From a virus: a stretch of 64,000 bases of DNA. Shown here in pieces: positions 1 to 21,060 of the stretch (its first letter is position 1; each line of letters starts with the position of its first letter). Under the pieces are notes generated by a model, which was not told the DNA's origin, did not search any database, and worked only from the letters and a program-made list of their open reading frames with translations. Position numbers and translations under genes: made by a program. Location of the stretch: IMG/VR virus record IMGVR_UViG_3300027747_000004, positions 46,995-110,994 of that record; one strand, given 5' to 3'.

Positions 1-1712
1 AATCCAAGGGCGAGATGGCCCCCTACATCATGATGGTGGACGAGCAGTCCAGCGAGGTGATCGGCCTGTACCGCAACTGGGAAGAGGGCGACGACACGAT
101 GACCAAGCTCGACTGGATCGTCGAGTTCAAGTTCATCCCGTGGCGCGGCGTGTTTGCCATCGGCCTGCCCCACCTGATCGGCGGCCTGAGCGCGGCCCTG
201 ACCGGCTCCCTGCGCGCGCTGCTAGACAGCGCCCACATCAACAACGCGGCGACCATGCTCAAGCTCAAGGGTGCCAAGATCAGCGGCCAGACGCAGCAGA
301 TCGAGGTCACTCAGGTGGCCGAGATCGAGGGCGCGCCCGGCGTAGATGACATCCGCAAGATCGCGATGCCCATGCCCTTCAACCCACCCAGCGAGACGCT
401 ATTCAAGCTGTTGGGCTGGCTGGACAGCGCGGCCAAGGGCGTGGTCACCACGTCCGAGGAGAAGATCGCCGATGTCAATGCTAACGCTCCGGTAGGTACT
501 ACCCAAGCGTTGATTGAGCAGGGCGCTGCCGTCTACTCCGCAATCCACGCGCGCCTGCACCAGTCGCAGGCTCGCCTGATCAAGGTGCTGTGCCGCCTGA
601 ACCGCTGGCACTTCAAGGAAATGCGCAAGGGCGACATGGTCGCGGACCTTGAGATCGAGCGCGAGGACTTCGAGCGCAACACCGACGTCATCCCGGTCAG
701 CGACCCGCACATCTTTAGCGAAACCCAGCGCATGGCGCAGATGCAGGCCGTGTTGGCCCGCGCGGACGCCAAGCCAGACCTGTACGACGCCAAAGCCGTG
801 GAGGAGCGTTTCCTCAAGCAGATCAAGATTCCCAACGTCAGCGAGCTGCTCAAGGACGTGCCCGAGCCCGAGCAGCGCACTTTGGCCGACGAGAACGCGG
901 CGATGTCCATGGGCCACCCGGCGTATGCCTACATGCAGCAGGACCACATCGCGCACATCCAAGGCCACCTAATGTTTGGCCTAGACCCGAGCTTTGGCGG
1001 CAACCCGCTAATCGCGCCAAACTACCAGCCCAACGCGATTGAACACATCAAGCAGCACATTACGCTGTGGTACCTCAACCGCATGAACGGCTACGTCATT
1101 AACCTGCGCGGCGGCAAGCCGGTGGACGACTATGAAAATCCGCACCTGACCGCCACCATCGACAAACTGTACGCCACCGTCGGCGAGCACGTCGCGTTGG
1201 ACGGCCAGATGGTGTTCCAGCAGATCCTGCCGCAACTTCAACAGATGCAGCAGGCAATGCAACAGAACAAGCCACAACCCCAACTGCCGCCCGATGCCCA
1301 GGTGGTCAAGGACACCGCGATGGCCGAGACCCAGCGCAAAGCGGCCAAGGACCAGCAGGAGATGCAGCTCGCCCAAGCCAAGCTGCAGGACAGCCAACAG
1401 CGCACCCAGGCCGAGATGCAGGCCAACGCGCAGAAGGCCCAGCAGGACACGCAGGTCAACATGCAGAAGGCCCAGCAGGACGCCCAGCTCAAGATGCAGG
1501 ACCTCCAGGCAACGTCTCAGGCCAAGCTGCAGGACACGCAGGTCGATATCCAAGCACGCGAGCAAGAGTCCATGCGCAATGCGCAACTACAATTGGAACT
1601 AGAGCGCATGCACGACCAGACGCAGATTGACATTACAAACGCAAAGTTAACCCACGAAACCATACAGAGTATGGTCCAACCCCAAGGAGCTCCAGATGGC
1701 AACCTCGAATAA
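1..1712 (+). CDS. Portal protein, copy 1 (5'-truncated by the window edge)
   Basis: Collinear homolog of the C-terminal two-thirds of 54283..56778 (shared KLDW-x-x-EFKFIPWRG, GLPHLIGGLS, APVGTTQALIEQG, DVIPVSDP); Q-rich C-terminus; reading frame is open upstream of position 15. Confidence 0.88.
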   Translation, partial: SKGEMAPYIMMVDEQSSEVIGLYRNWEEGDDTMTKLDWIVEFKFIPWRGVFAIGLPHLIGGLSAALTGSLRALLDSAHINNAATMLKLKGAKISGQTQQIEVTQVAEIEGAPGVDDIRKIAMPMPFNPPSETLFKLLGWLDSAAKGVVTTSEEKIADVNANAPVGTTQALIEQGAAVYSAIHARLHQSQARLIKVLCRLNRWHFKEMRKGDMVADLEIEREDFERNTDVIPVSDPHIFSETQRMAQMQAVLARADAKPDLYDAKAVEERFLKQIKIPNVSELLKDVPEPEQRTLADENAAMSMGHPAYAYMQQDHIAHIQGHLMFGLDPSFGGNPLIAPNYQPNAIEHIKQHITLWYLNRMNGYVINLRGGKPVDDYENPHLTATIDKLYATVGEHVALDGQMVFQQILPQLQQMQQAMQQNKPQPQLPPDAQVVKDTAMAETQRKAAKDQQEMQLAQAKLQDSQQRTQAEMQANAQKAQQDTQVNMQKAQQDAQLKMQDLQATSQAKLQDTQVDIQAREQESMRNAQLQLELERMHDQTQIDITNAKLTHETIQSMVQPQGAPDGNLE

Positions 1713-1851
1713 CTCTCAGACCGGCGAGCTGGTCAAGCAACACCACCGCCTGGCCATGGGTGAGAAGCTCAACGGCCAGAGCCTGCAGCCCAAGGGCGGC
1801 ACCAGCAAGCCCGCTGGCGGCTTGAGCGCGCTGGCCAAGAAGAATAAGTGA
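1696..1851 (+). CDS. Small basic protein, 51 aa (MATSNNSQTGELVKQHHRLAMGEK...)
   Basis: Translated by hand; AGGAG at 1685-1689; H-x-R-x-AMGE motif shared with the syntenic ORF 56780..57121. Confidence 0.7.
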   Translation: MATSNNSQTGELVKQHHRLAMGEKLNGQSLQPKGGTSKPAGGLSALAKKNK

Positions 1852-2018
1852 TCTCTGAACTTATTCACCAGATCCAGGTCAGGCAGGCGGAGCTTCGCCT
1901 GGCGCTGGTTCAAAACCCCGTGGGCGACCACGCTACATACACACGCATCGTTGGTGAGTACCAGGGCCTGCAATGGGTAATGGACGCACTAAACCAAAAA
2001 CTCGCTGAGAACGAATAA
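1848..2018 (+). CDS. Small hypothetical protein, 56 aa, GTG start (MISELIHQIQVRQAEL...)
   Basis: Translated by hand; GTGA overlap with the upstream stop; homologous to 57121..57306 (Y-x-R-x-x-G-x-x-x-GL). Confidence 0.7.
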   Translation: MISELIHQIQVRQAELRLALVQNPVGDHATYTRIVGEYQGLQWVMDALNQKLAENE

Positions 2019-2077
2019 GGCAGCAATGCCCCAAGCCGCGCTGAGATATGCGCATTTTCAAACCTGAAATATGGTTT
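2019..2077 (+). promoter_or_regulatory. Three-hairpin leader upstream of the GroES-like gene
   Basis: GGCA-GCAA-TGCC, GCGC-TGAGATAT-GCGC and AAACC-TGAAATAT-GGTTT, just upstream of AGGAG (2086-2090). Confidence 0.5.
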
Positions 2078-2095
2078 TTGTCGATAGGAGTGAGT

Positions 2096-2554
2096 ATGAG
2101 CGAGAAAGAAAAGATACCTACCATTGGTGGTGTCCAACAAGAGTCCGACCCAACTGAGCTGGCGTGGGCATTTCCAGACGTTTTACCCGGGCAAGCCCCG
2201 CTAGGTGGCCGCGTCATTGTCCAACTTCGCCGCATCAAGAAAAATGCCGGAAAGATTATCCTGGTCGAGGAGACCAAGGAGAATGAGAAGTGGAACAACA
2301 TGATCGGCAGGGTGGTCGCGATTGGTCCTTTGGCCTACCGCAACCGCGACACCATGCAGGTGTGGCCCGAAGGAAGTTGGGCTGAGATCGGTGACTACGT
2401 GCGCGTGCCTCGGTGGGGCGGGGATCGCTGGGAGCGACCCGTGCTTAACGAAGAAAACGGCGACCTGAACCCGGTCCTGTTCATGACAATCAACGACCAC
2501 GAGGTGATTGCGAAGGTCACTGACGACCCGTTGTCATTTAAAGCCTACGTTTAA
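2096..2554 (+). CDS. GroES-like co-chaperonin, copy 1
   Basis: PLGGRVIVQ...GKIIL...GRVVAIGP...IGDYV...DHEVIAKV fits the Cpn10 pattern; ATG at 2096 follows an SD. Confidence 0.75.
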   Translation: MSEKEKIPTIGGVQQESDPTELAWAFPDVLPGQAPLGGRVIVQLRRIKKNAGKIILVEETKENEKWNNMIGRVVAIGPLAYRNRDTMQVWPEGSWAEIGDYVRVPRWGGDRWERPVLNEENGDLNPVLFMTINDHEVIAKVTDDPLSFKAYV

Positions 2555-2563
2555 GGAAATACC

Positions 2564-3532
2564 ATGGTTACAAATACCGAAAAAGATGATGTTTTGCACG
2601 TGCAGGAAGGCCAAGACGGCACCGCCACGGTAGAACTGCCTGAGGGCATCCTGCCCCAAGACGACAACAACGACGATAAAACGCCCAATAACGCCCAATC
2701 CGACGACGGAAGCGATGACGACCACCCGGACGACAGCGACGCGGTGCGCGCAGCACGCCGCGCACGCCGCCGGTCCAAGAAAGACCTCATCCGCAAGACC
2801 AACGAAGAGAAGGATATTCGCCTGCAGGCCATCCAACGCGAGAACGAGGAGCTGCGAAACCGGCTTTCGCGCGTGGAACAGAAGACTCAGGCTTACGACG
2901 TGGGCCGAATTGAGAAGGCAATTGAGGACCAGCAGGTGCGCATGGAGTATGCGCGCATGAAATTGGCCGAGGCAACCGGTTCTGGTGACGGCGACGGCGC
3001 TGTAAAGGCGCAGGAACTGCTTTACGAGGCCCGAGACAGCCTTCGGCAGCTCGATGCCCTGCGCAGGCAGGCAAATCAGCCCGCGCAACCCGCGGCTCCG
3101 GCCGTAGATTACACCGTGCAACGCCACGCGACCACCTGGATTGAGCGAAACTCATGGTACAAACCCGATTTATCGGATACTGACAGCAAAATCGCAAAAG
3201 TAATCGACGAAGACCTCGTAAAAGAGGGCTGGAACCCCGGAACTGACGATTATTGGGACGAATTAGACTCCCGCTTGCAAAAAAGATTGCCGCATCGCTA
3301 TAATGATTCGTCAGATAAACGTGATACCGACCGACGAACACCAAGGAACACCGTGGGAAGCTCAGGACGTGAAGCATCAGCCGCATACGGGGGCACAAAC
3401 CGCACCTTTACCCTCACCGCTGAACAAGTGCGTGCGATGAAGGACGCGGGTATGTGGGATAACCCCGAAAAACGCGCAAAGATGATCAAACGATACGCAG
3501 CAGAATCCCGTAACAATTCCCGGAGTAACTAA
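2564..3532 (+). CDS. Putative capsid scaffolding protein, copy 1
   Basis: Acidic N-terminus, long coiled coil, position between portal and capsid genes; homolog at 57734..58723. Confidence 0.6.
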   Translation: MVTNTEKDDVLHVQEGQDGTATVELPEGILPQDDNNDDKTPNNAQSDDGSDDDHPDDSDAVRAARRARRRSKKDLIRKTNEEKDIRLQAIQRENEELRNRLSRVEQKTQAYDVGRIEKAIEDQQVRMEYARMKLAEATGSGDGDGAVKAQELLYEARDSLRQLDALRRQANQPAQPAAPAVDYTVQRHATTWIERNSWYKPDLSDTDSKIAKVIDEDLVKEGWNPGTDDYWDELDSRLQKRLPHRYNDSSDKRDTDRRTPRNTVGSSGREASAAYGGTNRTFTLTAEQVRAMKDAGMWDNPEKRAKMIKRYAAESRNNSRSN

Positions 3533-3534
3533 TC

Positions 3535-4083
3535 ATGACCGAATCACGTCTCAAAAAATCTCTCAATGCTGGTGGACGCCAAGATCGCGCAAGCGAGGAC
3601 GCAACCCGCGCAGCACCCGAAGATAAGTTCATTTCAACGCAGGAACGTCGCAAGATGTGGAGCGAAGAGTGGACGCAATCAGCACTGCCCAAACTGCCCA
3701 CATTTGACGGGTGGCATCTTTGCTGGCTTTCAACATCCAACAGCTACGACTCCATTGATAAGCGGATTCGCCTAGGGTACGTTCCAGTTAAATCTGAAGA
3801 GTTACCGGGTTATGAAGACTATCGTGTAAAGGCCGGCGAGCATGTTGGTTACATTTCCTGTAACGAGATGTTGCTGTTCAAGTTACCCATGGACGTTTAC
3901 CAAGAGATCATGATGCACATGCACCACGATCAACCCATCGAAGAGGCGGAGAAAATTCGCGTCCAGGTGGAACAACTCCAAGGTGCACGCGACAGCAATG
4001 GTAAATCGTTGGTAGGCGTTGAAGGCGAAGGATTGGGCAATTTTGATAGGCAACCAAACAAACTACCGGTATTTGCCGGTTAA
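3535..4083 (+). CDS. Conserved head-module hypothetical protein, copy 1
   Basis: HLCWLS...RLGY-x-PVK...CNEMLL shared with 58726..59259. Confidence 0.7.
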   Translation: MTESRLKKSLNAGGRQDRASEDATRAAPEDKFISTQERRKMWSEEWTQSALPKLPTFDGWHLCWLSTSNSYDSIDKRIRLGYVPVKSEELPGYEDYRVKAGEHVGYISCNEMLLFKLPMDVYQEIMMHMHHDQPIEEAEKIRVQVEQLQGARDSNGKSLVGVEGEGLGNFDRQPNKLPVFAG

Positions 4084-4096
4084 CTAAGGAGTTAAT

Positions 4097-4696
4097 ATGA
4101 GTGCTACCTCTGCTCCGTTTGGCCTTCGCCCCGCGTTTCACCCTTCGGGTCTGGATCGCGCACAAGCGCTGGCTGGCGGTATTACATCGGGTTATGCAAC
4201 CCAAATCTTGAAGGGCCAACCCGTTGCCTACTCGGCTTCGGCAGGTGTCATCGTTCCCCTCACTACCGCCCCTGCTGCTGGCTCTGCCGTAGCCTGGTCC
4301 GGTGCCTTTGCTGGCGTTGAGTGGACCGATACCACCGGTCGTCGTCGCGTGTCCAACTACTGGCCCGCAAGCACCGCGTACCAAACTGGTTCGTGCGTCG
4401 CTTATTTCTACAACGACAACAACATCGTTTACGAAATCCAAGCAGACGGTTCGATGGCTCAAACCACAATTGGTAACGAGTACAACTTCACCAATACCAC
4501 CTCTGGTTCTTCCACAACCGGTCTGTCGCAATGCACTTTGGGTGCTTCGACTGCTGCTGGTAACGGTACCCAAGGCCAAATGCGCGTGGTTGATCTTAGT
4601 CAAGCGGTGGATAACGCGTGGGGCGACGCCTACACCGTTGTTCGTGTCGTTAACGCGCAGTCGCAGTTCTTCGGCGCTTTCACTGCTATCGCATAA
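4097..4696 (+). CDS. Putative capsid decoration/cement protein, copy 1
   Basis: Beta-rich, A/T/G-rich, APFGLRP N-terminus, directly upstream of the major capsid gene; strong SD. Confidence 0.6.
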   Translation: MSATSAPFGLRPAFHPSGLDRAQALAGGITSGYATQILKGQPVAYSASAGVIVPLTTAPAAGSAVAWSGAFAGVEWTDTTGRRRVSNYWPASTAYQTGSCVAYFYNDNNIVYEIQADGSMAQTTIGNEYNFTNTTSGSSTTGLSQCTLGASTAAGNGTQGQMRVVDLSQAVDNAWGDAYTVVRVVNAQSQFFGAFTAIA

Positions 4697-4708
4697 GGAG
4701 AATAAATA

Positions 4709-5623
4709 ATGGCTGCACCAATGAGAAGTACGGACTTTCGTTCAATCGTCGAACCGATTTTGAACGAATGCTTCGACGGCGTTTACGACCAACGCGCTGA
4801 TGAATGGTCTCGTGTCTTCCGCGAGGAAGACGGTATCCCCCGCAACTACCACGAAGAACCCGTCCTTTACGGTTTCGGCGCGGCACCCCAACTGCCTGAC
4901 GGCACCCCGGTGACGTACCAACAAGGTGGCGTGTTGTTCCTGAAGCGCTATGTCTACAAGGTCTACGGTCTGGCTTTTGCCTTGACCAAGGTCCTGGTGG
5001 AAGACGGCGACCACATCCGCTTGGGCCAAGTGTACGCACGTCATTTGGCACAGTCGCTAGTGGAGACCAAGGAACTGCTGTCCGCTAACGTCTTGAACGT
5101 GGCATTCAACAGCTCCTACCCCGGTGGCGACGGCGTGCCTTTGATCAGCACCGCCCACCCCATCGTGAACGGTACCTTCAGCAACCAGTTGGCCACCGCC
5201 GCTGTTCTGTCCCAGACATCTCTTGAGCAGATGCTGATCCAGATCCGCCAGGCAGTGGACAACAACGGCAAACGTATCCGCTTGGTGCCACGTCAGTTGG
5301 TCGTTGCCCCCGGCAACGTGTTCCAAGCTGAGGTGCTGCTGAAGTCGGTCCTGCGCACCGGCAACGCCAACAACGACATCAACCCGGTGAAATCCATCGG
5401 CTTGTTGGATGAGGGCGCTGCCGTTCTGTCTCGCTTGACCAGCGCCAACGCATGGTGGGTCCAGACCGATGCACCCGAGGGCTTCAAGCTCTTGATGCGT
5501 CGTCGTCTGGAAAAGACCATGGAAGGCGACTTCGAGACCGACTCGATGCGCTACAAGGCTACCGAGCGTTATGATGTGGGCTTCACTGACCCCCGTTGCG
5601 CTTACGGCACACCTGGTATCTAA
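4709..5623 (+). CDS. Major capsid protein, copy 1
   Basis: 304 aa, strong SD (AAGGAG), followed by a terminator; GGDGV..L.STAHP and GDFETDSMRYKATERY..G.TDPR..YG.PG motifs typical of this capsid class. Confidence 0.85.
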   Translation: MAAPMRSTDFRSIVEPILNECFDGVYDQRADEWSRVFREEDGIPRNYHEEPVLYGFGAAPQLPDGTPVTYQQGGVLFLKRYVYKVYGLAFALTKVLVEDGDHIRLGQVYARHLAQSLVETKELLSANVLNVAFNSSYPGGDGVPLISTAHPIVNGTFSNQLATAAVLSQTSLEQMLIQIRQAVDNNGKRIRLVPRQLVVAPGNVFQAEVLLKSVLRTGNANNDINPVKSIGLLDEGAAVLSRLTSANAWWVQTDAPEGFKLLMRRRLEKTMEGDFETDSMRYKATERYDVGFTDPRCAYGTPGI

Positions 5624-5639
5624 TACCAGCAAAGGCCTT

Positions 5640-5671
5640 GGCGGGGGGCCTTAATCCCCCGCCCCATTTTT
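5640..5671 (+). terminator. Rho-independent terminator after capsid copy 1
   Basis: GGCGGGGG/CCCCCGCC stem followed by a T run. Confidence 0.7.
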
Positions 5672-5702
5672 AACATCGGTCAAACTTTTCAAGGAGCAGA
5701 CC

Positions 5703-6953
5703 ATGCCTCAATTCGCAGATGACATCTTTCTGGGCGGTAACAACGGCCAGACCTACATGGGCACCGGCAACTACCCTGCCACGTCCGTATTTACCGGCCG
5801 TATTGCTACGACCACCCTTACCGTATATTCGACCCAGTCCGGTGACCCTTTGGTAGTTGGCCAGTACATTACCGGCTCTAGCGTAACCGCCAACTCCTAC
5901 ATCACCGCTGACCTCGGACAGGATAGCTCTGGTCGCAATACTTATACCCTGTCTCAGTCATCTACCGTGTCGTCCAACACAACTATGACGGCCGCTGGCA
6001 ACGCCTTGCTGGGCGATCCTTCGCCGATGTCTTTGGGCGTTGGTCCTTTGGGCCGCATCTACGTGTTTGACACCGTGCCCCAGACCCTGCAGGCCGCAAA
6101 CATCGCTGCATCGCAAACTCAAACTGCTGCAGGCGCGTTGACCCTGACTGCCGGTACCTCGGCTCGATCTGTGACCCGCAGCGATGGCACCACGGTGATT
6201 CAGTTGGACGTTCCTCGTGCAACCAGCGTCACGACCGGTACAGCAACCGGAACGGCTTTGGCTGGCGTGGCCACGACTGGCACCGGCGGCCAGATCTCGT
6301 TCACGTCTAATACCAGCGTGTACACCGGCCAGTACGTGACCGTGTCTGGCACCGCAGGCGGTACCGGTTCGATTACTGGCTACAGCAACCCTACGACCTA
6401 CATCCTGTCTGCCGTAACCGCTACTACCGCGACCCTGTTGACCACCGCAAGCGGTGCTGTTGCATCTACCGCGGGTACGATTACTGGCCTGACCTTTACC
6501 CTGGGCGCGGCTCCCCGCGCTATGACGGTTGCGGGCTACGACTACTACGGCCAGGCCATGAGCGAGGTTATCACCAGCAGCTCTTCGGTCAGCACCGCAG
6601 TCAGCGGCAAGAAAGCGTTCTACCAGATCTCTTCTATCACCAGCGCAGGTGCAACCGGAACTGCGGTAACCGCAGGAACCACCGACGTGATTGGTTTGCC
6701 AGTCCGCGTGACGGACGCAGGCTACGTGATCAAGGTGGGCTGGAACAACGCCCTGCTGCAGAATGCTGGTACCTTCACGGCCGCCGACATGACATTGCCA
6801 GCTACCACTACCACAGGTGACGTGCGCGGCACATTCTTGCCTACCACAGCCTCTGATGGCACCAAGCGTTTGGTCATGTCCATCGCTGTGCCCGGTATCG
6901 CAGTCGGACCCAATGCAACCCGCACTGGTGCCCTTGGTGTAACCCAAGCCTAA
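5703..6953 (+). CDS. Thr/Ser/Gly-rich virion structural protein (head fibre/decoration-like), copy 1
   Basis: Beta-rich composition; GYDYYGQ-x-MSE and DVRGT motifs shared with 60869..62191. Confidence 0.6.
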   Translation: MPQFADDIFLGGNNGQTYMGTGNYPATSVFTGRIATTTLTVYSTQSGDPLVVGQYITGSSVTANSYITADLGQDSSGRNTYTLSQSSTVSSNTTMTAAGNALLGDPSPMSLGVGPLGRIYVFDTVPQTLQAANIAASQTQTAAGALTLTAGTSARSVTRSDGTTVIQLDVPRATSVTTGTATGTALAGVATTGTGGQISFTSNTSVYTGQYVTVSGTAGGTGSITGYSNPTTYILSAVTATTATLLTTASGAVASTAGTITGLTFTLGAAPRAMTVAGYDYYGQAMSEVITSSSSVSTAVSGKKAFYQISSITSAGATGTAVTAGTTDVIGLPVRVTDAGYVIKVGWNNALLQNAGTFTAADMTLPATTTTGDVRGTFLPTTASDGTKRLVMSIAVPGIAVGPNATRTGALGVTQA

Positions 6954-6966
6954 GGAGTGAAATACC

Positions 6967-8523
6967 ATGGCAACAAAGAAATCTAGCGGCGGTTTCGCCC
7001 AGATGCCTAAGATGATGACCAATGAGCCCTCGGCCATTCTGAAGCTGAAAAAAGGTGGCCACGTAGCTTCGGCTCACAAGGACGAGCATGGCCACACCAA
7101 CATGAAGGGTGATGCCTTCAAGGCCAAGTACGCCATGGACAAGGCAGAAGATGGCGCGGCTCCCAAAAAGCCGTCCATGGCCGAACGTCGCAAAGCGATG
7201 TCCGGTGCCCTGCTTAACTCCAAGAAGGGTGGCAAAGTTGCAAAGCATGAAGATGCCGCGCAGGACCGCGCCATGATCAAGAAGGCCCTGGCAGGCAAGA
7301 AGTTTGCTGCTGGCGGCACCATTAAGGGTAATGCTGGCAAGTTTGCTAAGACCAAAGTCGTTGACGGTGACAAAAAAGACACCGCCAAGGGCACCGGTGT
7401 TGTGAAGATGGGCAAGCCCGCTGGTTACAAAACCGGCGGAACCATTGAAGGCAACGCTGGCAAGTTTGTCAAGACCAAAGTGGTTGGTGGCGACAAGACC
7501 GACAAAGCACACGGTACCAAGGGTATCAAAGAGGGCCAGCCTGCTGGTTTCAAAAAGGGCGGCAAGATTGGTTGGGAAAATCGCCCAGCCGATGATGGCG
7601 ACCATTTTGACCCGGCTCATGGTACTGGTGGCGTGCGCGAAGGCAACGCTGGCGGCTACAAAAAAGGCGGTGCTGCAAAAAAGCATTTTGCCACGGGGGG
7701 CAGCGTTAATGATGCTGGCCGCGCCGTGGCAATGCCCCGCAAACCTGTGTCTCGTCCCGTAGCAAACAGCTTGCAATCTGGCACCTTCAAAAAAGGTGGC
7801 AAGGTCAAGAAGTATGCTGATGGCGGTAATGTTAGTGGTGGCATGGGCGGCACGGGTGGTACTACGCCGATGGATTACGCAATATCATCAAACCAATCTG
7901 CGTCAGTGCCGGGCGCACCTATAGGTGCAACTTTTGATGGCCCGGCACCGATGAATCCTTTTGGAGGCATGAATCCCAACATCGGCAAACCCGGCGCAAC
8001 AATCATGCCAACCATGGGAACAACTTCGCCAGTTCCCGCTGACCTGCAACAACAAGGACAGCAAGCGGCAATGCAGAAAGCGGCAATGCAGCAAGCGGCA
8101 ATGCAGCAACCACCTATGAGTCAGCAGCAGCTAATGCAGCGTGCCCCAATGGGTGGCTTTGGTGGTATGCGCCCCCCAATGGGCGGAATGCGTCCTCCGA
8201 TGGGTAACATGCGTCCAATGCCGGTTGCCTACAATCCGAACGGCGCTACCAAGCTGTACAAAAAAGGCGGTAAGGTCAAGAAATTCGACATCGGTGGAAG
8301 CACTGGCAACGACATTCAAGATCTGTCCAATGGCGCGTATGCTGGAACCTACAAGAACCAGCGTGATGAAAACGAACGCGACCGAGAAGCCATCTTGGGG
8401 GCACCAGGAAGGGCGTATGATGCTGTCAAACGTCTGCTTGGAGGAAAGCCTGGCGCGGGAGCCGGTCGTGGGATGGTGAACCCGCCTATGGCCAAAAAAC
8501 GCGGTGGCGGCGCTAAGTGCTAA
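6967..8523 (+). CDS. Lys/Gly-rich repeat protein (KKGG motifs), putative internal core protein, copy 1
   Basis: About 12 x-[AK]-x-GG motifs; very basic; SD AAGGAG. Confidence 0.7.
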   Translation: MATKKSSGGFAQMPKMMTNEPSAILKLKKGGHVASAHKDEHGHTNMKGDAFKAKYAMDKAEDGAAPKKPSMAERRKAMSGALLNSKKGGKVAKHEDAAQDRAMIKKALAGKKFAAGGTIKGNAGKFAKTKVVDGDKKDTAKGTGVVKMGKPAGYKTGGTIEGNAGKFVKTKVVGGDKTDKAHGTKGIKEGQPAGFKKGGKIGWENRPADDGDHFDPAHGTGGVREGNAGGYKKGGAAKKHFATGGSVNDAGRAVAMPRKPVSRPVANSLQSGTFKKGGKVKKYADGGNVSGGMGGTGGTTPMDYAISSNQSASVPGAPIGATFDGPAPMNPFGGMNPNIGKPGATIMPTMGTTSPVPADLQQQGQQAAMQKAAMQQAAMQQPPMSQQQLMQRAPMGGFGGMRPPMGGMRPPMGNMRPMPVAYNPNGATKLYKKGGKVKKFDIGGSTGNDIQDLSNGAYAGTYKNQRDENERDREAILGAPGRAYDAVKRLLGGKPGAGAGRGMVNPPMAKKRGGGAKC

Positions 8524-8524
8524 C

Positions 8525-8550
8525 AGCAGGGGCTTCGGCCCCTGCTTTTT
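8525..8550 (+). terminator. Rho-independent terminator with UUCG tetraloop
   Basis: AGCAGGGGC-TTCG-GCCCCTGCT followed by TTTT. Confidence 0.9.
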
Positions 8551-8567
8551 AATTATTAGGTGAAAAA

Positions 8568-11195
8568 ATGTCCCAACTCGTCGTCTACACAGGCCCCAGC
8601 AGCCAAACCGATAATCAACTGCGCACACAGACTTCACAGCGTTCGGCTGCATATGACCCTGTGGACAAGTTGCGCACATCCAATCCTCAAGCATTGATTG
8701 ACACCGACTTTGAGTATGGCACCCAGCCAACCAAATGGGAATCAATCGGTCTTCAAAACAATCGTCAAAGCTGCTACTACATTGCGCAGTCCCCACTGAC
8801 AATCACGGGCATCACGGGCGCAAACACCTTGAATGGCGGATTCACGTTAGCAGGCACTTTCAGCTTGACCGCAGGCGACATCATCTACATTCAAAACTCC
8901 CTGAACACGGATTGCAATGGTTGGATGTATGTCACCACCACCTCAACAACCAGCGTCAATGTTCAAACAGCAGTAGGTACCACAATCCCTGCAACCAACT
9001 TCTACAACAGTGCAGGAACTTACGTCTACAAAGGCTACTTTTACTCGTCATGTGGGTTTAACCTGACAGGCACCAGCGCGGTAACTAATGTTGGTACAAC
9101 GATCACGGTAACCACGACAAGCGCGCATGGTTTGAATGCAAACAGCTTGATCTACGTGGTTGGCTTGGGCGGTGGTACACCAGCCCCAAATGGCGCGTAT
9201 ATTGTTGCTACTGTACCTACAGCAAATACGTTCACCTACATAGTCGCATCAGCGCCTACAGTTGCCATCACCAACACAGCAGGCGCAACCAACATATACG
9301 CACGACCTGCTGGTTATGTTGAAACTCGATCTTTTGACGGTGGCGTTGCATTCTCTGCTGGCTCTGCTGTTCCAAACCAACAGTTGATCCGCCAAACTCG
9401 TCGCTACTTCCGTTACCAATCGGGAAAGGGCATCCAGTTTTCTACAGGTTCCTCGTTGAAGCCTTACTTGTTCAACCCATCGTTGAGTGCAAGCGGAACA
9501 TCTATCGGCGCAACCATTACGGTCACCACGCAGTTTCCTCATAACCTAACTGCAAACACAGTTGTGACGGTTGCAGGCGTGGATCAAACGGGTTACAACG
9601 GCACATACACAATTCTTTCTACGGGCTTGACTGCAACTGCATTTACTTACACTGCAACAACCGCCCCTTCCTCTACAACAGCAACTGGATTGAACATCAA
9701 GGTCAGCCCGTTTAGTTGGTATGGATCAGGCAATCGCATTGGCTTCTTTGATCAACAAAACGGAATGTTTTTTGAGTTTGACGGCCAAGTACTGTATGCA
9801 GTGTTACGTAGTTCTACAACCCAAATTAATGGCAGGTCAACTGTAACTACGGGTTCTGGAACCATTACAGGAACAGGAACGCAGTTTAGCACGCAACTGA
9901 AACCCGGCGACTATATTGTTATACGCGGTCAGTCGTACAAGGTGATCACAATCACCAGCGACACCTCCATGCAAGTCTCCCCAGAGTACCGAGGTGGCAC
10001 GATCAGCCAGGGCGGTGTAATTATTTCTAAGACAATTGATACACGTACGCCACAGTCGCAGTGGTTTGACGTATGTGATGGCACAAGCAGTATCAATAAC
10101 CCTTCGGGCTATCTGCTTGATTTGACGCGCATGCAAATGTGGTATATCGATTACTCATGGTATGGCGCTGGCTATGTTCGTTTTGGATTTCGCGGTAAAG
10201 ACGGTGCGGTGACCTATGTGCATCAGATCCAAAACAACAACATCAAGTACGAAGCCTACATGCGTTCTGGCAACATGGCAGCGCACTACGAGTCCAACAA
10301 CCAGTCGCTGGTGACCTACATTACTGCGTCTGCAGGAACAAGCGATACCACATTGAACGTGGCAAGTACCACAGCATTTGCGCCTACTGGTACTTTAAAA
10401 GTGCAAGCAAGCGGTACGTCTGGTGTAATTGAGTACATGACCTACACAGGCAAGACGGACACCACGTTTACCGGGTTGACTCGTGCAACCACTGGTGGCG
10501 CTGCTACCGCGCAGTCATTTACTTACTCTGCTACCGCCCCGGTTGCAGTTGAATACGCATCACCTGACACTGCTGCGGCTCTGTCTCACTGGGGTTCTTC
10601 GGTCATCATGGATGGGCAGTTCAATGATGACAAGTCGCTGATCTTTAACTACGGAACCACGGCGCAGCTTGCTGTTCCTGCGGGGGCAACCGTCCCTATT
10701 ATTGCGATTCGTATTGCACCATCTGTGGACAACGGACAGGTTGGCCTGCTTGGTGTTAAAGAAATTGTCAACCGTATGCAACTGCAATTGGTTGAGTTGG
10801 GTATTGTTTCTGCTGGTACGTTTCTAATTAACTTGGTTTTGAATGGATACTGCACTAGCTTTAGCGGGTCATGGAGTTCACCTACAGTCTCCAATGGGTA
10901 CACCTCTTCATTAGCGCAAGTAGCGGTTAACACAACTACTACAGCGTCAATTAGCGGCGGTGAATCAGTTGCTGCAGCGTTCACCAATTCAAGCGGGCAA
11001 ACTACACTAGATTTAAGTGGAGTTCGGGATTTGGGTAACTCTATCCTTGGGGGCGGTACTACCTCTTCGGTTCCAACCGGACAATCGGGGCAGTACCCAG
11101 ATGGGCCTGATATTTTGTATGTAGCTGCTACTAATACGGCAGGATCAGCTACAAATATTTTGGCTCGTTTGAGCTGGAAAGAAGCGCAGGCCTAA
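8568..11195 (+). CDS. Large beta-rich virion structural/tail-associated protein (875 aa)
   Basis: Thr-rich with repeated TVTT..AHGL/PHNL modules; lies in the structural operon; its 5' part is repeated at 63048. Confidence 0.65.
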   Translation: MSQLVVYTGPSSQTDNQLRTQTSQRSAAYDPVDKLRTSNPQALIDTDFEYGTQPTKWESIGLQNNRQSCYYIAQSPLTITGITGANTLNGGFTLAGTFSLTAGDIIYIQNSLNTDCNGWMYVTTTSTTSVNVQTAVGTTIPATNFYNSAGTYVYKGYFYSSCGFNLTGTSAVTNVGTTITVTTTSAHGLNANSLIYVVGLGGGTPAPNGAYIVATVPTANTFTYIVASAPTVAITNTAGATNIYARPAGYVETRSFDGGVAFSAGSAVPNQQLIRQTRRYFRYQSGKGIQFSTGSSLKPYLFNPSLSASGTSIGATITVTTQFPHNLTANTVVTVAGVDQTGYNGTYTILSTGLTATAFTYTATTAPSSTTATGLNIKVSPFSWYGSGNRIGFFDQQNGMFFEFDGQVLYAVLRSSTTQINGRSTVTTGSGTITGTGTQFSTQLKPGDYIVIRGQSYKVITITSDTSMQVSPEYRGGTISQGGVIISKTIDTRTPQSQWFDVCDGTSSINNPSGYLLDLTRMQMWYIDYSWYGAGYVRFGFRGKDGAVTYVHQIQNNNIKYEAYMRSGNMAAHYESNNQSLVTYITASAGTSDTTLNVASTTAFAPTGTLKVQASGTSGVIEYMTYTGKTDTTFTGLTRATTGGAATAQSFTYSATAPVAVEYASPDTAAALSHWGSSVIMDGQFNDDKSLIFNYGTTAQLAVPAGATVPIIAIRIAPSVDNGQVGLLGVKEIVNRMQLQLVELGIVSAGTFLINLVLNGYCTSFSGSWSSPTVSNGYTSSLAQVAVNTTTTASISGGESVAAAFTNSSGQTTLDLSGVRDLGNSILGGGTTSSVPTGQSGQYPDGPDILYVAATNTAGSATNILARLSWKEAQA
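8902..9520 (+). repeat. Exact direct repeat of 63382..64000 (offset 54,480 bp)
   Basis: Line-by-line comparison shows no mismatch after position 8901/63381 up to the window end. Confidence 0.93.
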
Positions 11196-11196
11196 T

Positions 11197-11742
11197 ATGC
11201 CACTAGTCAAAAGCAAATCAAAAGAAGCGTTCAGCAAAAACATTTCTGCAGAAATGAAAGCTGGCAAGCCGCAAAAGCAAGCGGTAGCCATTGCCTACTC
11301 TGTTAAGAATGCTGTTGGCAAAAAGTCTGGTGGCTTGTGGGATAACATTCACGCTAAGCAAGAGCGCATTAAAAATGGATCTGGCGAGCGTATGCGCAAG
11401 CCCGGCTCAAAAGGCGCGCCAACCGCTGCCGACTTTAAAGCATCAGCTAAGCCTGCCAAAATGAAAAACGGCGGCGACCCTGTGCTGTCTGTTAGCCGCG
11501 GTGAAAAGTTGCCTACAAGCCAAGGCGCAGGTTTGACGCAAAAAGGACGTGACAAGTTTAACCGCGCAACTGGTAGCAACCTTAAGGCTCCGCAGGCAAA
11601 AGGCTCCAGACATGACTCATTTTGCGCAAGAATGAGTGGCATGCCTGGGCCTATGAAAGATGATAAAGGCCGCCCAACACGCAAAGCCGCGTCGCTAAAA
11701 CGCTGGCATTGCGCTACAGGCGGCACAGTTAAAAACTACTAG
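11197..11742 (+). CDS. Basic hypothetical virion-associated protein
   Basis: K/R-rich; KQAVAIAYS and RHDSFCARMSG motifs recurrent in phage head modules. Confidence 0.65.
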   Translation: MPLVKSKSKEAFSKNISAEMKAGKPQKQAVAIAYSVKNAVGKKSGGLWDNIHAKQERIKNGSGERMRKPGSKGAPTAADFKASAKPAKMKNGGDPVLSVSRGEKLPTSQGAGLTQKGRDKFNRATGSNLKAPQAKGSRHDSFCARMSGMPGPMKDDKGRPTRKAASLKRWHCATGGTVKNY

Positions 11743-11752
11743 GTAATCCCAC

Positions 11753-12811
11753 ATGTCAACAAGCGGTACTGTTGGGCAAACTGTAATCACTGTACAAAAT
11801 CTTATTGACAGTGGTGCTCGTCGTGCAGGAAAGCTTGCTGAAGAGCTTACGTCTGAGCAAATACAGGCGTCCAAGCAAAGCTTGTACTACCTACTGTCAA
11901 ATCTTGTTAATCGCGGCATTCAATATTGGTGCATCCAAAAAGTAGTGCTGGGCTTAGTGCCTGACAAATACATTTATGATATGCCTGTTGGTGTCAATGA
12001 CATCTTAAACTCAAATTACCGCACACTTACTGCAAACACATCAGGCGGGTACAGCTCTTCAGGTAATTCAGCCAACGTATTTGATGGGCAATACACAAAT
12101 ATTTGCCAACTTAGCAGCAATACAGGCGTTATTGGCATCAACAATGGCTCTGGAAGCCCGGTCTACGTGGGCTCCGTGGGTATCCTACCAGCCGTGTCGG
12201 GTTCTGTGACTCTGAGTGTGCAATACTCGCTTGATAATAGCACTTGGGTAACACTTTACAGCCCTGGCGCCACTACTTGGGTTGCGGGCACATGGGTTTA
12301 CTACGACTTGGACCCGTCTGCGTCTGCGCCATATTGGAGAATTCAGCAAACTGCCGGCGTAAACATGGGTGTGTACCAAGTTGTGTTTGGGTCTAACGCA
12401 ACTGAAATCCCACTTGCACGCTTGAATCGTGATGACTACACGAACTTGCCCAACAAAAACTTTTTGAACAACTACCCGCTGCAATATTGGTTTGATCGTA
12501 CTATTCCGCAGCCGTCCATGTACTTATGGCCAACACCAAATACCTACGCACCTCAGATTGTGGCGTGGTGTTCATACTATGTGCAGGATGTAGGTAACCT
12601 CTCAGGTTCAATCCAAATACCCCAGCGATGGTATCTGGCCATCCAGAATATGCTTGCGCACCAGATGGCCATGGAGCTACCTGGCGTTGATGCAGCACGA
12701 ATTCAATATTGCGAAAATCAGGCTGAAAAGTACTGGATGCAAGCAGAGCAAGAAGAACGTGACAAGTCGCCAATTTATTTTGCGCCTAACATTAGTGTGT
12801 ACACACGATGA
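11753..12811 (+). CDS. Putative head-tail adaptor with an inserted discoidin-like domain
   Basis: Helical N-terminus (LL..L.NRG..YW), LPNK...P.QYWFDR..P.MYLWP.P, IPQRWY.A; central QYSLDNSTW...YWRI segment. Confidence 0.55.
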   Translation: MSTSGTVGQTVITVQNLIDSGARRAGKLAEELTSEQIQASKQSLYYLLSNLVNRGIQYWCIQKVVLGLVPDKYIYDMPVGVNDILNSNYRTLTANTSGGYSSSGNSANVFDGQYTNICQLSSNTGVIGINNGSGSPVYVGSVGILPAVSGSVTLSVQYSLDNSTWVTLYSPGATTWVAGTWVYYDLDPSASAPYWRIQQTAGVNMGVYQVVFGSNATEIPLARLNRDDYTNLPNKNFLNNYPLQYWFDRTIPQPSMYLWPTPNTYAPQIVAWCSYYVQDVGNLSGSIQIPQRWYLAIQNMLAHQMAMELPGVDAARIQYCENQAEKYWMQAEQEERDKSPIYFAPNISVYTR

Positions 12812-13179
12812 GCAAATGGCTTGATACTTTAGGTAATGCTGTATTGTCGATTGCTATTTGCGATCGATGCAAGATGAAGCGCGCCTACAGTGACATGTCG
12901 CAAGATAGAAACATTCCGGGTTTACGTGTATGCAATCAAGGCTGCAATGACGAGCGTGACCCATACCGCTTACCTGCACGACAGCCTGAAAAGATTGCTA
13001 TTCGCTTCCCACGTCCTGACGAAGATGTTGCAGAAGTTGATAACGCGCTGACCACTGACCCTAATGTTGTAACCAACTTAAATCAAACTATTACACACAC
13101 AACGGCAGGTGAGTATGGCATTGCACCTGAGACGTCGCAAAACCCGATTGATGGCAACCTTGACAATTTGAGCCCATAA
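12808..13179 (+). CDS. Small Cys-motif protein (CDRC...C..GC.D)
   Basis: Putative Zn-binding Cys pattern; ATGA overlap with the upstream gene. Confidence 0.65.
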   Translation: MSKWLDTLGNAVLSIAICDRCKMKRAYSDMSQDRNIPGLRVCNQGCNDERDPYRLPARQPEKIAIRFPRPDEDVAEVDNALTTDPNVVTNLNQTITHTTAGEYGIAPETSQNPIDGNLDNLSP

Positions 13180-13547
13180 TGCCATACAACAATAATTTAT
13201 TTGTTCCGCGTGCAAAGTATCAAACATTTACCCCAATGTTTTTGGGGCAAGCTGCCCTAACCACGTCTGCTGCTGTAATTTATCTTGCGCCTGTGCAGGC
13301 GTTGACAGCCATTCGTGACATTGTAGTTGTTAATACTTCAGGTTCAACGGCAACACTTAACTTGTATATTGTCTCGCCTGTTGCAACAGCAGGCACAAGC
13401 AATGCAATTTATTACGGGTATTCACTTACTGCAGGGCAAACGTTATGCTGGACAGGTGAGCAAATACTTGCAGGATTGTGGACTTTACAAGGCAGTGCAT
13501 CAGCAACAGGTCTTACTGTTACAGTCAGCGGTGGGATGTATATATAA
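13179..13547 (+). CDS. Small beta-rich structural protein
   Basis: Translationally coupled in the structural operon. Confidence 0.6.
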   Translation: MPYNNNLFVPRAKYQTFTPMFLGQAALTTSAAVIYLAPVQALTAIRDIVVVNTSGSTATLNLYIVSPVATAGTSNAIYYGYSLTAGQTLCWTGEQILAGLWTLQGSASATGLTVTVSGGMYI

Positions 13548-13581
13548 CTGTAACTTAGCAATATAAAATACCGGTACAAGT

Positions 13582-16500
13582 ATGGCAAACATTCGTATAT
13601 CGCAACTACCCGCAGCAACTACACTTGCTGGTACAGAGTCCGTGCCAATTGTGCAGAATGGGGTCACAGTTCAAACCACGGTGGGGGCAATTGCGAACGC
13701 ATATTCGCAGACACAAACCTATGTAACCGTTAATCAAGAATCAAGCCTAGCCAACAGCCAAGTGCTCACAGCGGGCGATGGGATAAATGTTACCGCCAGC
13801 GTCCCTCAAGGAAACATCAAAGTATCCTTGAAAAATTCTGGTGTGTCTGCTGGCAGCTTCACCAATGCCAATGTAACGGTTGATCAATATGGTCGCGTTA
13901 CTGCGGCATCAAATGGTGCTAGCAGTGGAACGGGAACGGTAACCTCTGTTGCGCTTACTGCTCCATCGTTCTTGTCGGTAACCGGAAGCCCAATTACCAG
14001 CAATGGAACATTGGGATTAAGCTATTCTGGAACTGCTTTGCCTGTGGCAAATGGTGGCACAGGAGTTACAACGTCTACAGGTTCTGGCAATACTGTTTTG
14101 TCTACCTCGCCAACATTGGTTACGCCAAATCTTGGTATTCCAGCATCAGTAACATTGACAAATGCTACGGGTTTGCCTTTGTCAACTGGTGTTACTGGAA
14201 CTTTGCCAATTGCAAATGGTGGAACAGGTACAACTACGCCTTCTTTGGTAGCTGGTACAAACGTCACCATTACCGGCTCTTGGCCAAATCAAACCATTAA
14301 CTCTACTGGAGGCGGTGGTAGCGGCACCGTAACTTCTGTTGCTGCAACTGTTCCTTCTTTCTTGTCGGTTACTGGTAGCCCCATTACGACAAGTGGAACT
14401 TTGGGTATTGGATATTCCAGTACTGCACTCCCTGTTGCAAATGGTGGTACAGGAGCAACGTCAGCATCTGCGGCACAAGCAAACTTGATGGGGTTTACAA
14501 CTACTGCAACCGCAGCAGGAACTACTACATTAACAAATACAAGTAGTTATTATCAAGTATTTACTGGCACAAGTAATCAAAATATAAAACTTCCTTTAAC
14601 ATCAACATTAACACTTGGCTGGTCATTTTTTATTTTTAACGCAACTACCAATGGAAATTTAACTGTTCGTAGTTCAACTAATATTGTAATTACAGTACTT
14701 ATCCCTAACATGGGTGTAATTGTTACTTGTAAAAGTACAACAATAACAACTGAGGCAGCATGGTATTATGTTTTTACTGGAACAAATGATTATGCCGGTA
14801 GCGGTGCTATGGTCTTGCAAAATGGGCCTTCTTTGATTAATGCAGATTTAGGTACGCCATCTGCAGCAGTTCTTACAAATGCTACAGGACTTCCCTTAAG
14901 TACGGGAGTAACAGGTACATTACCTGTTGCAAATGGCGGTACAGGTTCGACCTCCACACAATTTGTTAACCTAGCTTCCAATGTCACAGGCACTTTGCCA
15001 ATTGCAAATGGAGGCACAGGATCAACTTCAACAACTTTTGTAAATCTTGCTTCCAATGTCACTGGAACTTTACCTGTGGCAAATGGCGGAACAGGCATCG
15101 CCACGCTGACGGCTAATTACATCCCATATGGCAATGGTACCAGTGCCTTTGCATCTTCTTCTGGGTTCACTTACAACCCCACCACCACCACGCTGACAGC
15201 GCCTGTGCTGATCGTAAATTCAACCACCAGCACAACACCCAATTTGACGTTTAACGCCAGCAATTCGGGCTTTACTTCTGGCGCAGCGGTGTCTGGCAGT
15301 TACTTGCAGACCGTCATTCAAAACAGTAGTGGCACGGCAGGCGCGTCCACCAACTACGTCTTGAGCAATGACTTGGGCACCGACTCCACCTACTATGGTG
15401 AGTTTGGCATGAACTCGTCGGTGTACTCAGGTGCAAGCATCCCTGCTGACTTTTTCAGCATCAACAATGGCCTGTACTTTTCGGGCCACGATGGAGACAT
15501 CACCGTAGGCTCTGGCAACGGCTTCAAGACCTACCTTGCGTGGGGCGCAACTGGTGGCTCTGCCCACGTTATCAATGCCTCTGGTGCTATTGGTTTGAAC
15601 ACCAATTTGGCGGCTGGAGCAGGATCAGGCACAACCAACTTTGGCACTGCGGGTTATGTGATGACCAGCGCAGGCAATGCCGCCACCCCCACTTGGTCGC
15701 AAGTCAGTTTATCTGCTGGTGTCACTGGAACATTACCACTAGCAAATGGCGGTACAGGCAAAACAACAGCACCTGCTGCACAAGCCAACTTGTTGGGCTA
15801 CACGGCTACTTCTACCACCGCCCTCGCAACCACTGCCGCGACTGGCTCTGCTGGTACAGCCACCTTGACTTTTGCAGTGCAAGCTTCAGCGCCCTATGCT
15901 CTTGGCTCATATATTTCCGTTCAAGGTGTAACGCCTACGGGGTATAACGGCTATTACCAAGTAACTGGATGCACGACCACTACCGTTTCTTACACCAACG
16001 CAACCACTGGCGCTCAAACTGTTGCTGGAAGTATTTCTCCAACAACAACGCTTACCAATACAAGCAGTTTTTATCAATATTGCACCTCAACATTGCAGGG
16101 TTCATATGTATTGCCTGATACATCAACTTTACAAGCTGGTTGGGCATTTAGAATTTCTGCGGTAGGGGTTTCTACATACGTATATAGTTTAAGCGGAGCC
16201 TTAGTAGCAGGCATTACATCAAGTACATCATATTATTTTGTATGTATTGATACCACTGTAAATACTGCTGCTGCTTGGAGGAGTGAGATTACATCGACTG
16301 CTGGATTTACTGGCTCCGGAAGCATGGTGCTTTCTAGTGGCCCGACTATTACTGGTACTCTTAACTTTACTGGTTCTACAACCAATTCAGCAAATATTGG
16401 TACAGCAATAACAACTGGTTTAATTACAGTTGGCGGCACTGCCGGTTTAGGTTTAATTAACATTGGTCGAGCAACAACCTCCCAGCCAATTCAAATTGGT

Positions 16501-17166: not shown

Positions 17167-17167
17167 T

Positions 17168-18040
17168 ATGGCACAAGTAATTCTTACAGGCTCAGGAACT
17201 TGGACGCTTCCAGCAAATTGGAACGATGCTGTCAATACCATTGAAATATATGGTGCTGGAGGCGATGGTGCGGCAGGAACTGCTTCTGCATCTGGTGGTG
17301 GTGGTGCTGGTGGATATTATTTTCTATGCTCCAATGTACCTTTTGCTACACTTATTTCTCAAGGCTATGTTACAAACTTAAATTACGATACTAAATCTTC
17401 TTCTGCTGGAAGTAATATTGCATACTTGGGTGTTGGTACTATTGATGGTTCAACTTATGGCAGCATACTTTTAGCTGCGGGTGGACAAAATGCTAGTGGA
17501 ATTACAGGTGGTGCTTTTGGAGTTCTTACTACAACCATAAATAATACAGATTATTTAACAAGTTCTTTTGCCCGTGGCGCAGGAGGAAATGGAAGAACAA
17601 ACACTACAGCAGCCGGTGGTGGCGGTGGTGGTGCTGGTGGGCCTAATGGAAATGGTGGAGCTGGAGGAGCAAATAGCGCAACCAATCCAACAATAGGTCG
17701 AGGCGGCGGTGGAGGAAATGGTGGAACGGCTGGCTCTGGAACAACATCAACTGCTGGTACTGCGGGTACAGGTGCTGGCGCTGGAGGTGCTGGTGGTGCA
17801 GCATCTACATCGGGAACCGCTGGAGGCGCAGGAGCATCAATTTATTCGGGTGGTGGAGGCGGTGGCGCTGGTGATGGAATAACTGCTACATCCGGTGGAG
17901 CTGGCGGACTTTATGGTGGCGGCGGTGGTGGAGGAGCATCATCTATACTTTCAACTGGTGGTCTTGGTGCTGCCGGTATCATTATCATCACTTACACTCC
18001 TTTGGTTCAGTCAAAAGGCAACTTCTTTTTAATGTTTTAG
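17168..18040 (+). CDS. Glycine-rich tail-associated protein
   Basis: SGTWT.P...EIYGAGG N-terminus, poly-Gly runs, G.G..GIIIITY C-terminus. Confidence 0.7.
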   Translation: MAQVILTGSGTWTLPANWNDAVNTIEIYGAGGDGAAGTASASGGGGAGGYYFLCSNVPFATLISQGYVTNLNYDTKSSSAGSNIAYLGVGTIDGSTYGSILLAAGGQNASGITGGAFGVLTTTINNTDYLTSSFARGAGGNGRTNTTAAGGGGGGAGGPNGNGGAGGANSATNPTIGRGGGGGNGGTAGSGTTSTAGTAGTGAGAGGAGGAASTSGTAGGAGASIYSGGGGGGAGDGITATSGGAGGLYGGGGGGGASSILSTGGLGAAGIIIITYTPLVQSKGNFFLMF

Positions 18041-18049
18041 GAGCCAATC

Positions 18050-19327: not shown

Positions 19328-19342
19328 CCCAAAGGAAATACC

Positions 19343-19639: not shown

Positions 19640-19646
19640 TGTTCAA

Positions 19647-20126: not shown

Positions 20127-20127
20127 A

Positions 20128-21053: not shown

Positions 21054-21060
21054 GTATAAA

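Follow-up and report, generated by a model that had tools for sequence, protein, structure and literature searches.

How a single viral sequence comes to hold two diverged sets of capsid-building genes is the question raised by a 110,994-b IMG/VR virus record, of which the final 64 kb (contig 46995-110994) make up the window analysed here. The record could be the genome of a phage with two capsid systems, or it could join two phages that belong apart. As set out below, the evidence argues strongly for the latter, and the record is very probably an assembly chimera of two related phages rather than the sequence of a dual-capsid phage.

Two head modules and the genomes that carry them

The two syntenic head modules described in an earlier note on this DNA were both found in place (Table 1), with no internal stops in any of the gene pairs. 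The MCPs, put there at about 86% identity, are 85.9% identical in amino acid sequence, and the greater divergence claimed for the portal and the scaffold is borne out by identities of 54.5% for the portals (878 versus 831 aa) and 38% for the scaffold-like proteins. The decoration-like proteins share 85% identity, the hypothetical proteins 54%, the GroES-like proteins 45%, the Thr-rich proteins 31% (with Thr contents of 19% and 18%) and the KKGG-repeat proteins 18% (518 versus 265 aa, with 16 and 13 x-x-x-G-G motifs in copies 1 and 2, respectively). Two small genes were also said to recur; they do so by position but hardly by sequence, as their identities are just 16% and 26%.

Both units gave PHROG matches for the portal, the major head protein and TerL. 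The MCP matches Pfam Phage_capsid_4 (36.0 bits against a cut-off of 27) and the GroES-like protein matches Cpn10 above the curated cut-off, while the scaffold-like and decoration-like proteins match PHROGs of unknown function only, so that both of these labels are putative. Judged from these sequence matches, the modules fit the HK97 type of tailed phages, in that a portal and a large terminase accompany an MCP from a phage capsid family.

The record as a whole is composed of two complete, collinear phage genomes, unit A of 56,387 b and unit B of 54,480 b. The earlier reading, a genome of about 54.5 kb joined to the head module of a higher-GC phage, was right about the size of B and about the higher GC content of copy 1 (0.57 versus 0.49), but it fell short in that what is attached is a whole genome, 56,387 b long, the copy 1 head module being the terminal part of this second genome, which extends upstream of the window. 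Each unit has its own TerL (61% aa identity between the two), portal, MCP, DNA polymerase, helicase and primase. The halves are collinear across the structural and packaging genes, the pairs compared being 18-92% identical in amino acid sequence, and nucleotide identity is patchy, at 65-93%. At species level, A and B are new members of a large uncultivated freshwater phage group, whose MCP is encoded by at least 593 IMG/VR contigs.

In composition the halves differ by 8.5 GC points (0.572 in A, 0.487 in B) and by 0.24 in GC3. The excess of G/C-ending codons that had been noticed in copy 1 is confirmed by the GC3 calculation, which is higher for copy 1 in all ten pairs, and over the whole units A exceeds B in 18 of 18 homologous pairs (means 0.69 and 0.45). 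Tetranucleotide correlation is 0.74 within A and 0.80 within B, against 0.39 between them. Because the two units are different genomes, the mean k-mer frequency of the record stays close to 1.01 (1.014 for 20-mers and 1.010 for 31-mers), and the frequency well above 1 by which CheckV recognizes a same-genome concatemer was not found in the record.

Table 1. Features of the record, in window positions unless marked as contig positions.
Feature	Position	Strand	Remarks
Unit A, unique sequence	contig 128-55895		
Unit A, 3' end	1..8901	+	higher-GC phage; portal through 5' 334 b of fibre-like gene
Portal, A	1-1712 (partial in window)	+	PHROGs; gene begins 924 b upstream of window
GroES-like, A	2048-2554	+	
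Scaffold-like, A	2564-3532	+	
Hypothetical, A	3535-4083	+	
Decoration-like, A	4097-4696	+	
MCP, A	4709-5623	+	304 aa, HK97-type; PHROG major head matches
Terminator-like hairpin after MCP A	5640-5663	+	
Thr-rich protein, A	5703-6953	+	
KKGG protein, A	6967-8523	+	
Terminator-like hairpin after KKGG gene A	8525-8546	+	stem almost equal to 63005-63028
Fibre-like virion protein gene, composite	8568..11195	+	875 aa; PHROG 5838 virion structural protein, E 4.7e-216; A 5' end 8568-8901, S 8902-9520, B 3' part 9521-11195
Repeat S, copy 1 (joint A to B)	8902-9520 (contig 55896-56514)	+	619 b exactly equal to 63382-64000
Unit B, unique sequence	9521..63381 (contig 56515-110375)	+	53,861 b, GC 0.487, complete phage genome
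Tail/fibre genes, B	within 9521..63381		
DNA helicase, B	34714-36087	-	
DNA polymerase, B	36981-38798	-	
Primase, B	45773-47902		
TerL, B	48549-49976		
1431-aa protein, B	49979-54274		
Head module, B	54283-63001	+	
Portal, B	54283-56778	+	PHROGs
GroES-like, B	57278-57715	+	
Scaffold-like, B	57719-58723	+	
Hypothetical, B	58726-59259	+	
Decoration-like, B	59278-59871	+	
MCP, B	59884-60798	+	PHROGs
Terminator-like hairpin after MCP B	60805-60827		
Thr-rich protein, B	60869-62191	+	
KKGG protein, B	62204-63001	+	
Terminator-like hairpin after KKGG gene B	63005-63028		
Fibre-like gene, second copy, 5' part	63048..64000	+	B 5' end and S; runs over false closure into contig 128-1790 (A 3' part)
Repeat S, copy 2 (joint B to A)	63382-64000 (contig 110376-110994)	+	ends exactly at record end
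Final 127 b of record	63874..64000	+	equal to contig 1-127 and to window 9394-9520 (end of S copy 1)

The repeat at the joints and the ends of the record

An assembly chimera through a shared gene was the option that the earlier note had listed first, with 8.7-9.5 kb as the place to look. The joint there is a 619-b exact repeat, S, inside the 875-aa gene. Apart from the terminal overlap, S is the only exact repeat of at least 127 b in the record; shorter exact matches between A and B, of 113 and 75 b, lie near it. The initial 127 b of the record are identical to the final 127 b, an overlap of exactly that length, and contig 1-127 corresponds to the last 127 b of S, with position 128 differing from position 56515. 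The record thus starts and ends at the right-hand branch point of S, so that its ends coincide with S and both A/B joints fall inside this repeat. What the earlier reading had not included is the second copy of S at the end of the record, through which a false circle is closed.

These features are best explained if phages A and B co-occurred in one sample and shared S. Where two genomes, circular or circularly permuted, have one repeat in common, a de Bruijn graph built with k=127 would take the form of a figure-8, which the assembler very probably walked as A, S, B, S before halting at the branching vertex. The leftover 127-b overlap would then be the k-mer of that vertex and would mimic the terminal repeat of a circle of 110,867 b, whereas a correct resolution would give the circles A+S and B+S with one head module each. 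The length of the overlap points to a short-read assembler and to k=127, and we infer that reads spanning S in the order of the dimer were absent. In support of this scheme, an exact repeat no shorter than k lies at both joints, the record both begins and ends at a branching vertex, where precisely 127 b overlap, each unit is complete at a size normal for the family, and the linkage of genes across the joints is discordant here and concordant in relatives.

The fibre-like gene itself is mosaic, and within it A and B have a near-identical tract of about 0.9 kb that includes the 619 exact bases. Such a tract in phages 8.5 GC points apart suggests recent exchange of a host-recognition module, most likely by recombination between phages meeting in a common host, and the exact identity of S could be due in part to bubble-collapsing by the assembler. 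An exact 43-mer from S had no match in viral or metagenome contig collections, which may exclude the record itself. The fibre-like protein is about 40% identical to virion/fibre proteins of cyanomyoviruses. The 875-aa gene occurs in part of the phage family only; A-like relatives have a fibre-like gene at this place.

Genome size and gene linkage in relatives

Genome length is almost invariant among related viruses (PMC8116208). Among the IMG/VR contigs listed, the best 80 have MCPs 90-98% identical to that of A, and the longest of these 80 measures 59 kb; no listed relative is longer than about 72 kb. Relatives closed by terminal repeats measure 55,723, 55,756, 57,128 and 54,146 b, with one MCP match each, and a B-like fragment of 15,189 b was rated 25% complete by CheckV, which implies an expected genome length of about 60 kb. 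Described phages agree with these sizes. The MCP of unit B is 77.6% identical to those of the Caulobacter phages RW, KcrB, RLK and GB2A (about 62 kb, one MCP each), 86.5% identical to that of the metagenome-derived MW202545.1 (57.5 kb, single MCP), and about 43% identical to those of the more distant pelagiphage HTVC023P and roseophages CRP-901/902, which also have a single MCP. All of these genomes are 52-62 kb long and, unlike the record, none has two head modules.

The arrangement of genes around the fibre gene is equally informative. In two contigs close to B (L081 and L145) the head genes are of B type (portal 91% and 89%, MCP 100% and 98%), and on the same contigs the genes past the fibre gene are of B type too (95% and 91%, 91% and 91%, 77% and 88%). 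In three contigs close to A (L006, L045 and L040; GC 0.56-0.57) genes of A type flank the fibre gene on both sides. In the record, linkage is discordant at both joints, with A on the left and B on the right at one, and B on the left and A on the right at the other. The fibre gene itself is too diverged in relatives (at most 81% nucleotide identity) for its 5' and 3' parts to be paired with A or B in this way; L081 is slightly nearer B for both parts. The nearest relatives of A and B have about 80% nucleotide identity across aligned flanks, and a near-identical copy of A alone or of B alone was not found in the collections searched.

Rival readings and use of the record

A more complex chimera, in which, in addition to the joining at S, parts of unit A (candidates being contig 1-1790 and 4016-10928) come from further co-occurring variants, would account for the B-like composition of these stretches, whose GC3 is 0.23-0.49 compared with 0.6-0.9 elsewhere in A, and the sub-k exact matches to B lie close to S. 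We consider it unlikely, however, as the record lacks any other exact repeat that reaches 127 b and the low-GC stretches consist of fibre or tail-type genes. Such genes are commonly exchanged between phages, and A-like relatives have a fibre-like gene at the same position.

A real heterodimer is harder to defend, and we regard it as very unlikely. Recombination at S in a co-infected cell would give a cointegrate or mixed replicative concatemer, A-S-B-S, that was then captured by assembly. The near-identical tract does make it probable that A and B have recombined, for which they would have had to share a cell, and a true A-S-B-S circle would give the same graph topology as two circles sharing S. 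However, this molecule would exist only transiently inside the cell and make up little of the DNA, two monomers would look the same to short reads, and the record lends it no positive support; closed relatives with one MCP at 54-57 kb and the concordant linkage across the fibre gene speak against it, as does a length of 111 kb, about twice what the family would package to judge from its genome sizes. That a 111-kb circle is physically real, a cointegrate formed in the fibre-like gene and persisting to dominate the sample, is highly improbable; if true, it would be one replicon in which the genes for capsid, packaging and replication are all present in two sets, diverged and intact. We give almost no credence to one genuine phage genome of about 111 kb that arose by fusion or duplication and kept two diverged capsid-building systems, even though every ORF of both head modules is intact and the record closes on itself. 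The doubling goes beyond the head genes to TerL, DNA polymerase, helicase, primase and tail genes, and the split in GC, GC3 and tetranucleotide usage is not expected of one replicon evolving in one host. Listed relatives reach about 72 kb at most, the closed ones 54-57 kb, and a single exact repeat houses both joints and coincides with the record ends. Neither the dual-capsid reading nor a real concatemer has positive support. Two further candidates were rejected: tandem prophages, as the record is self-closing and its ORF tables and annotated proteins have no host-like flank, and an MDA-type chimera, as a single long homologous repeat, and not random microhomologies, is found at both joints.

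The assembly chimera has recognizable counterparts. Terminal-repeat lengths cluster at assembler k values, and some IMG/VR contigs exceed their expected length more than twofold, probably as artefacts of assembly (CheckV paper, Nayfach et al. 2020, PMC8116208). The concatemer contigs of that study share with the record a length about twice that expected and a 'terminal repeat' of k-mer length, and are regarded as artefacts; however, each of them consists of one genome repeated, which a k-mer frequency above 1 reveals, whereas two different genomes are joined here. The 'variant components' of Phables (PMC10104058) likewise involve related phages with common unitigs whose unseparated genomes yield chimeric or duplicated sequences, but those are mostly variants above 95% ANI, while A and B stand at species or genus distance with a single common node of 619 b.

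The biology that is left is ordinary, namely two co-occurring related phages with one head module each, and the record matters mainly for data quality: its 127-b end overlap is of the type classed as a direct terminal repeat and a closed genome, yet it holds two genomes. As a reference sequence it would push expected genome lengths upwards, make clustering and the assignment of hosts less clear, and encourage mistaken reports of 'dual capsid' phages. With a k-mer frequency of 1.01, k-mer and duplicated-region filters would miss it, and only a warning on length versus expected length could flag it.

Structure of the record and its two units

The window is the final 64,000 b of one 110,994-b virus record (contig 46,995-110,994; contig denotes the record's coordinates), and self-comparison split the whole record into two collinear units, the first half (A) rich in GC and the second half (B) poorer in it. 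The record's initial and terminal 127 b are identical; besides this end overlap, exact-repeat analysis found a sole long exact repeat, S, of 619 b. Contig 1-127 equals the final 127 b of S; divergence begins at the following base (128 versus 56,515). From this identity and the positions of the S copies, the record reads as the last 127 b of S followed by A-S-B-S; counting one S each, unit A measures 56,387 b and unit B 54,480 b. GC is 0.572 in A versus 0.487 in B, GC3 is 0.69 versus 0.45 (A above B in 18 of 18 pairs), and tetranucleotide correlation is 0.74 within A and 0.80 within B versus 0.39 between units.

ORF lists show the same gene order on the + strand at both window ends, namely portal, two small ORFs, GroES-like, ~330-aa, ~180-aa, ~198-aa, the 304-aa major capsid protein (MCP), a Thr-rich protein and the Gly/Lys-rich 'KKGG' protein. 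Copy 1 (window 1-8900) is the end of unit A; copy 2 lies in unit B. The earlier note had described the module as present twice and intact, and this was accurate: the global alignments summarized in the table contained no internal stops in any copy 1/copy 2 gene pair. Its manual MCP count of ~86% agrees with the aligned 85.9%, and its remark that copy 1 is richer in G/C-ending codons is borne out by a higher GC3 in every gene pair. The two small ORFs correspond by position only, and 'scaffold' and 'decoration' are positional labels. Cpn10 and Phage_capsid_4 matches exceed Pfam cut-offs; PHROGs support the portal, the major head protein and, immediately upstream in unit B, the large terminase (TerL). 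In both copies, terminator-like hairpins follow the MCP and KKGG genes.

Features of the record and copy 1 versus copy 2 comparisons
Feature	Position	Remark
S, first copy	contig 55896-56514 = window 8902-9520	exact repeat
S, second copy	contig 110376-110994 = window 63382-64000, record's extreme end	exact repeat
875-aa fibre-like gene	window 8568-11195; second copy 63048-64000, continuing contig 128-1790	contains S
Portal pair		54.5% aa identity
GroES-like pair		45% aa identity
Scaffold-like pair		38% aa identity
Hypothetical pair		54% aa identity
Decoration-like pair		85% aa identity
MCP pair		85.9% aa identity
Thr-rich protein pair		31% aa identity
KKGG protein pair	window 6967-8523 and 62204-63001	18% aa identity; 518 vs 265 aa
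TerL-portal interval, B	window 49979-54274	one 1431-aa ORF
TerL-portal interval, A	contig 40033-46070, mostly before window	two ORFs, 1000 + 1012 aa
Repeats, B's 503-aa protein	window 25766-26022 (contig 72760-73016)	54-b period, in frame, tandem
Repeats, A's 589-aa protein	contig 4469-4716	75-b period
Low-GC island, A	contig 4016-10928, outside window	GC3 0.23-0.49 vs 0.6-0.9 elsewhere

The doubling covers everything, the head module being just one part. In tblastn searches, unit B ORFs had collinear homologues in unit A from the fibre-like gene through tail/virion genes to TerL, portal and head module; TerL is 61% identical (aa), and the early and replication regions are far more diverged. 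PHROG scans found one set of TerL, DNA polymerase, DNA helicase and primase per unit, and A and B are each complete genomes. ARAGORN detected neither tRNA nor tmRNA genes in window 1-64,000.

Relatives and the origin of the joints

It is very probable that the record is an assembly chimera of two circles; an assembly chimera was already among the origins proposed in the earlier note. Common SPAdes/metaSPAdes settings go up to k = 127, and the exact 127-b overlap is a k-mer-length closure. Terminal-repeat lengths are known to cluster at assembler k values (CheckV paper, PMC8116208). Two circular or permuted genomes with one common exact repeat of at least k would form a figure-8 in the assembly graph, and the record would be a walk A-S-B-S ending at the branching vertex on the right edge of S. 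A genuine A-S-B-S circle would give an identical graph, so the record is uninformative on linkage across S and other evidence must decide.

That evidence comes from relatives and from the compositional split between A and B given above. At least 593 IMG/VR contigs encode this MCP, the longest among the best 80 being 59 kb. Four relatives closed by terminal repeats (55,723, 55,756, 57,128 and 54,146 b) have a single MCP match each, and phage-collection relatives with the closest MCPs carry one MCP each in 57-62 kb. CheckV assigned 25% completeness to a 15,189-b B-like fragment, hence an expected length of ~60 kb. Two contigs close to B (L081/L145) have B-type head genes (portal 91%/89%, scaffold-like 90%/85%, MCP 100%/98%) and three post-fibre genes that are also B-type (95%/91%, 91%/91%, 77%/88%); three close to A (L006, L045 and L040; GC 0.56-0.57) are A-type on either side. 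Both A/B joints in this record are discordant. Two closed genomes (G001, G004) have one head module each, and the homologues of the post-fibre genes lie within ~3.5 kb downstream of it. A real A-S-B-S dimer has only a very slim chance. We conclude that the head module is genuinely repeated in the sequence and, as a single-molecule feature, is very probably an assembly artefact. A 43-mer derived from S had no further exact occurrences in viral and metagenome contig collections; the nearest relatives are ~80% identical (nt) across aligned flanks. In another related record, G010, the MCP match (36686-37597, 91% identity) contains one in-frame TAA, which may reflect a sequencing error, gene inactivation or recoding.

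The CheckV paper reported IMG/VR contigs exceeding twice the expected length in which one and the same genome recurs, flagged by k-mer frequency (PMC8116208). In contrast to those contigs, A and B differ; the k-mer frequency is therefore 1.01, and the heterologous version slips past the k-mer filter. The same underlying graph problem is described for phage variants by Phables. The value of the case lies in this curation lesson and in the exchanged fibre tract.

The shared fibre-like gene

The 875-aa gene in which S sits hits PHROG 5838 ('virion structural protein', E 4.7e-216), and its product is ~40% identical (aa) to virion/fibre proteins of T4-like cyanomyoviruses (S-PM2, Syn1, S-RSM4 and others). 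The A/B similarity island is coextensive with this gene, and past it there is no alignable A/B similarity. Profiled in 100-b steps, identity is ~67% at the 5' end, 89-95% directly before S, 100% across S, 98-99% for the next 200 b and then a patchy 63-98% to the stop codon, giving a mosaic whose patches range over 63-100% identity and which ends abruptly at the borders of the gene. Its GC is B-like (~0.49) in both units, and the gene is missing from G001 and G004 and found in other relatives. Owing to the mosaic identity, the B-like GC and the patchy presence, the gene reads as a mobile module; judged from sequence, it looks like a mosaic host-recognition module recently exchanged between A and B. 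The exact stretch of S could have been lengthened by assembler bubble-collapsing.

Giant proteins, repeats and a low-GC island

In the KKGG proteins (G 17-18%, K 13-15%), the x-x-x-G-G motif occurs 16 times in A's copy and 13 times in B's, often in the form aromatic-K-K-G-G; neither protein matched a Pfam or PHROG family. The TerL-portal interval keeps its position and is hypervariable in content, with giant proteins encoded in both units: blastp (E<1e-5) revealed no similarity between its A and B ORFs, and family matches are all but absent, the exception being one weak endolysin-family PHROG match in A. B's 503-aa protein, which carries tandem repeats, has weak tape-measure-like PHROG matches. 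The low-GC island of the GC-rich unit A holds a 625-aa ORF (GC3 0.23) without a family match, as well as the 589-aa protein, which shares a 265-290-aa stretch, at 83-87% identity, with B's 1194-aa protein; the island probably consists of tail-fibre cassettes that have been exchanged.
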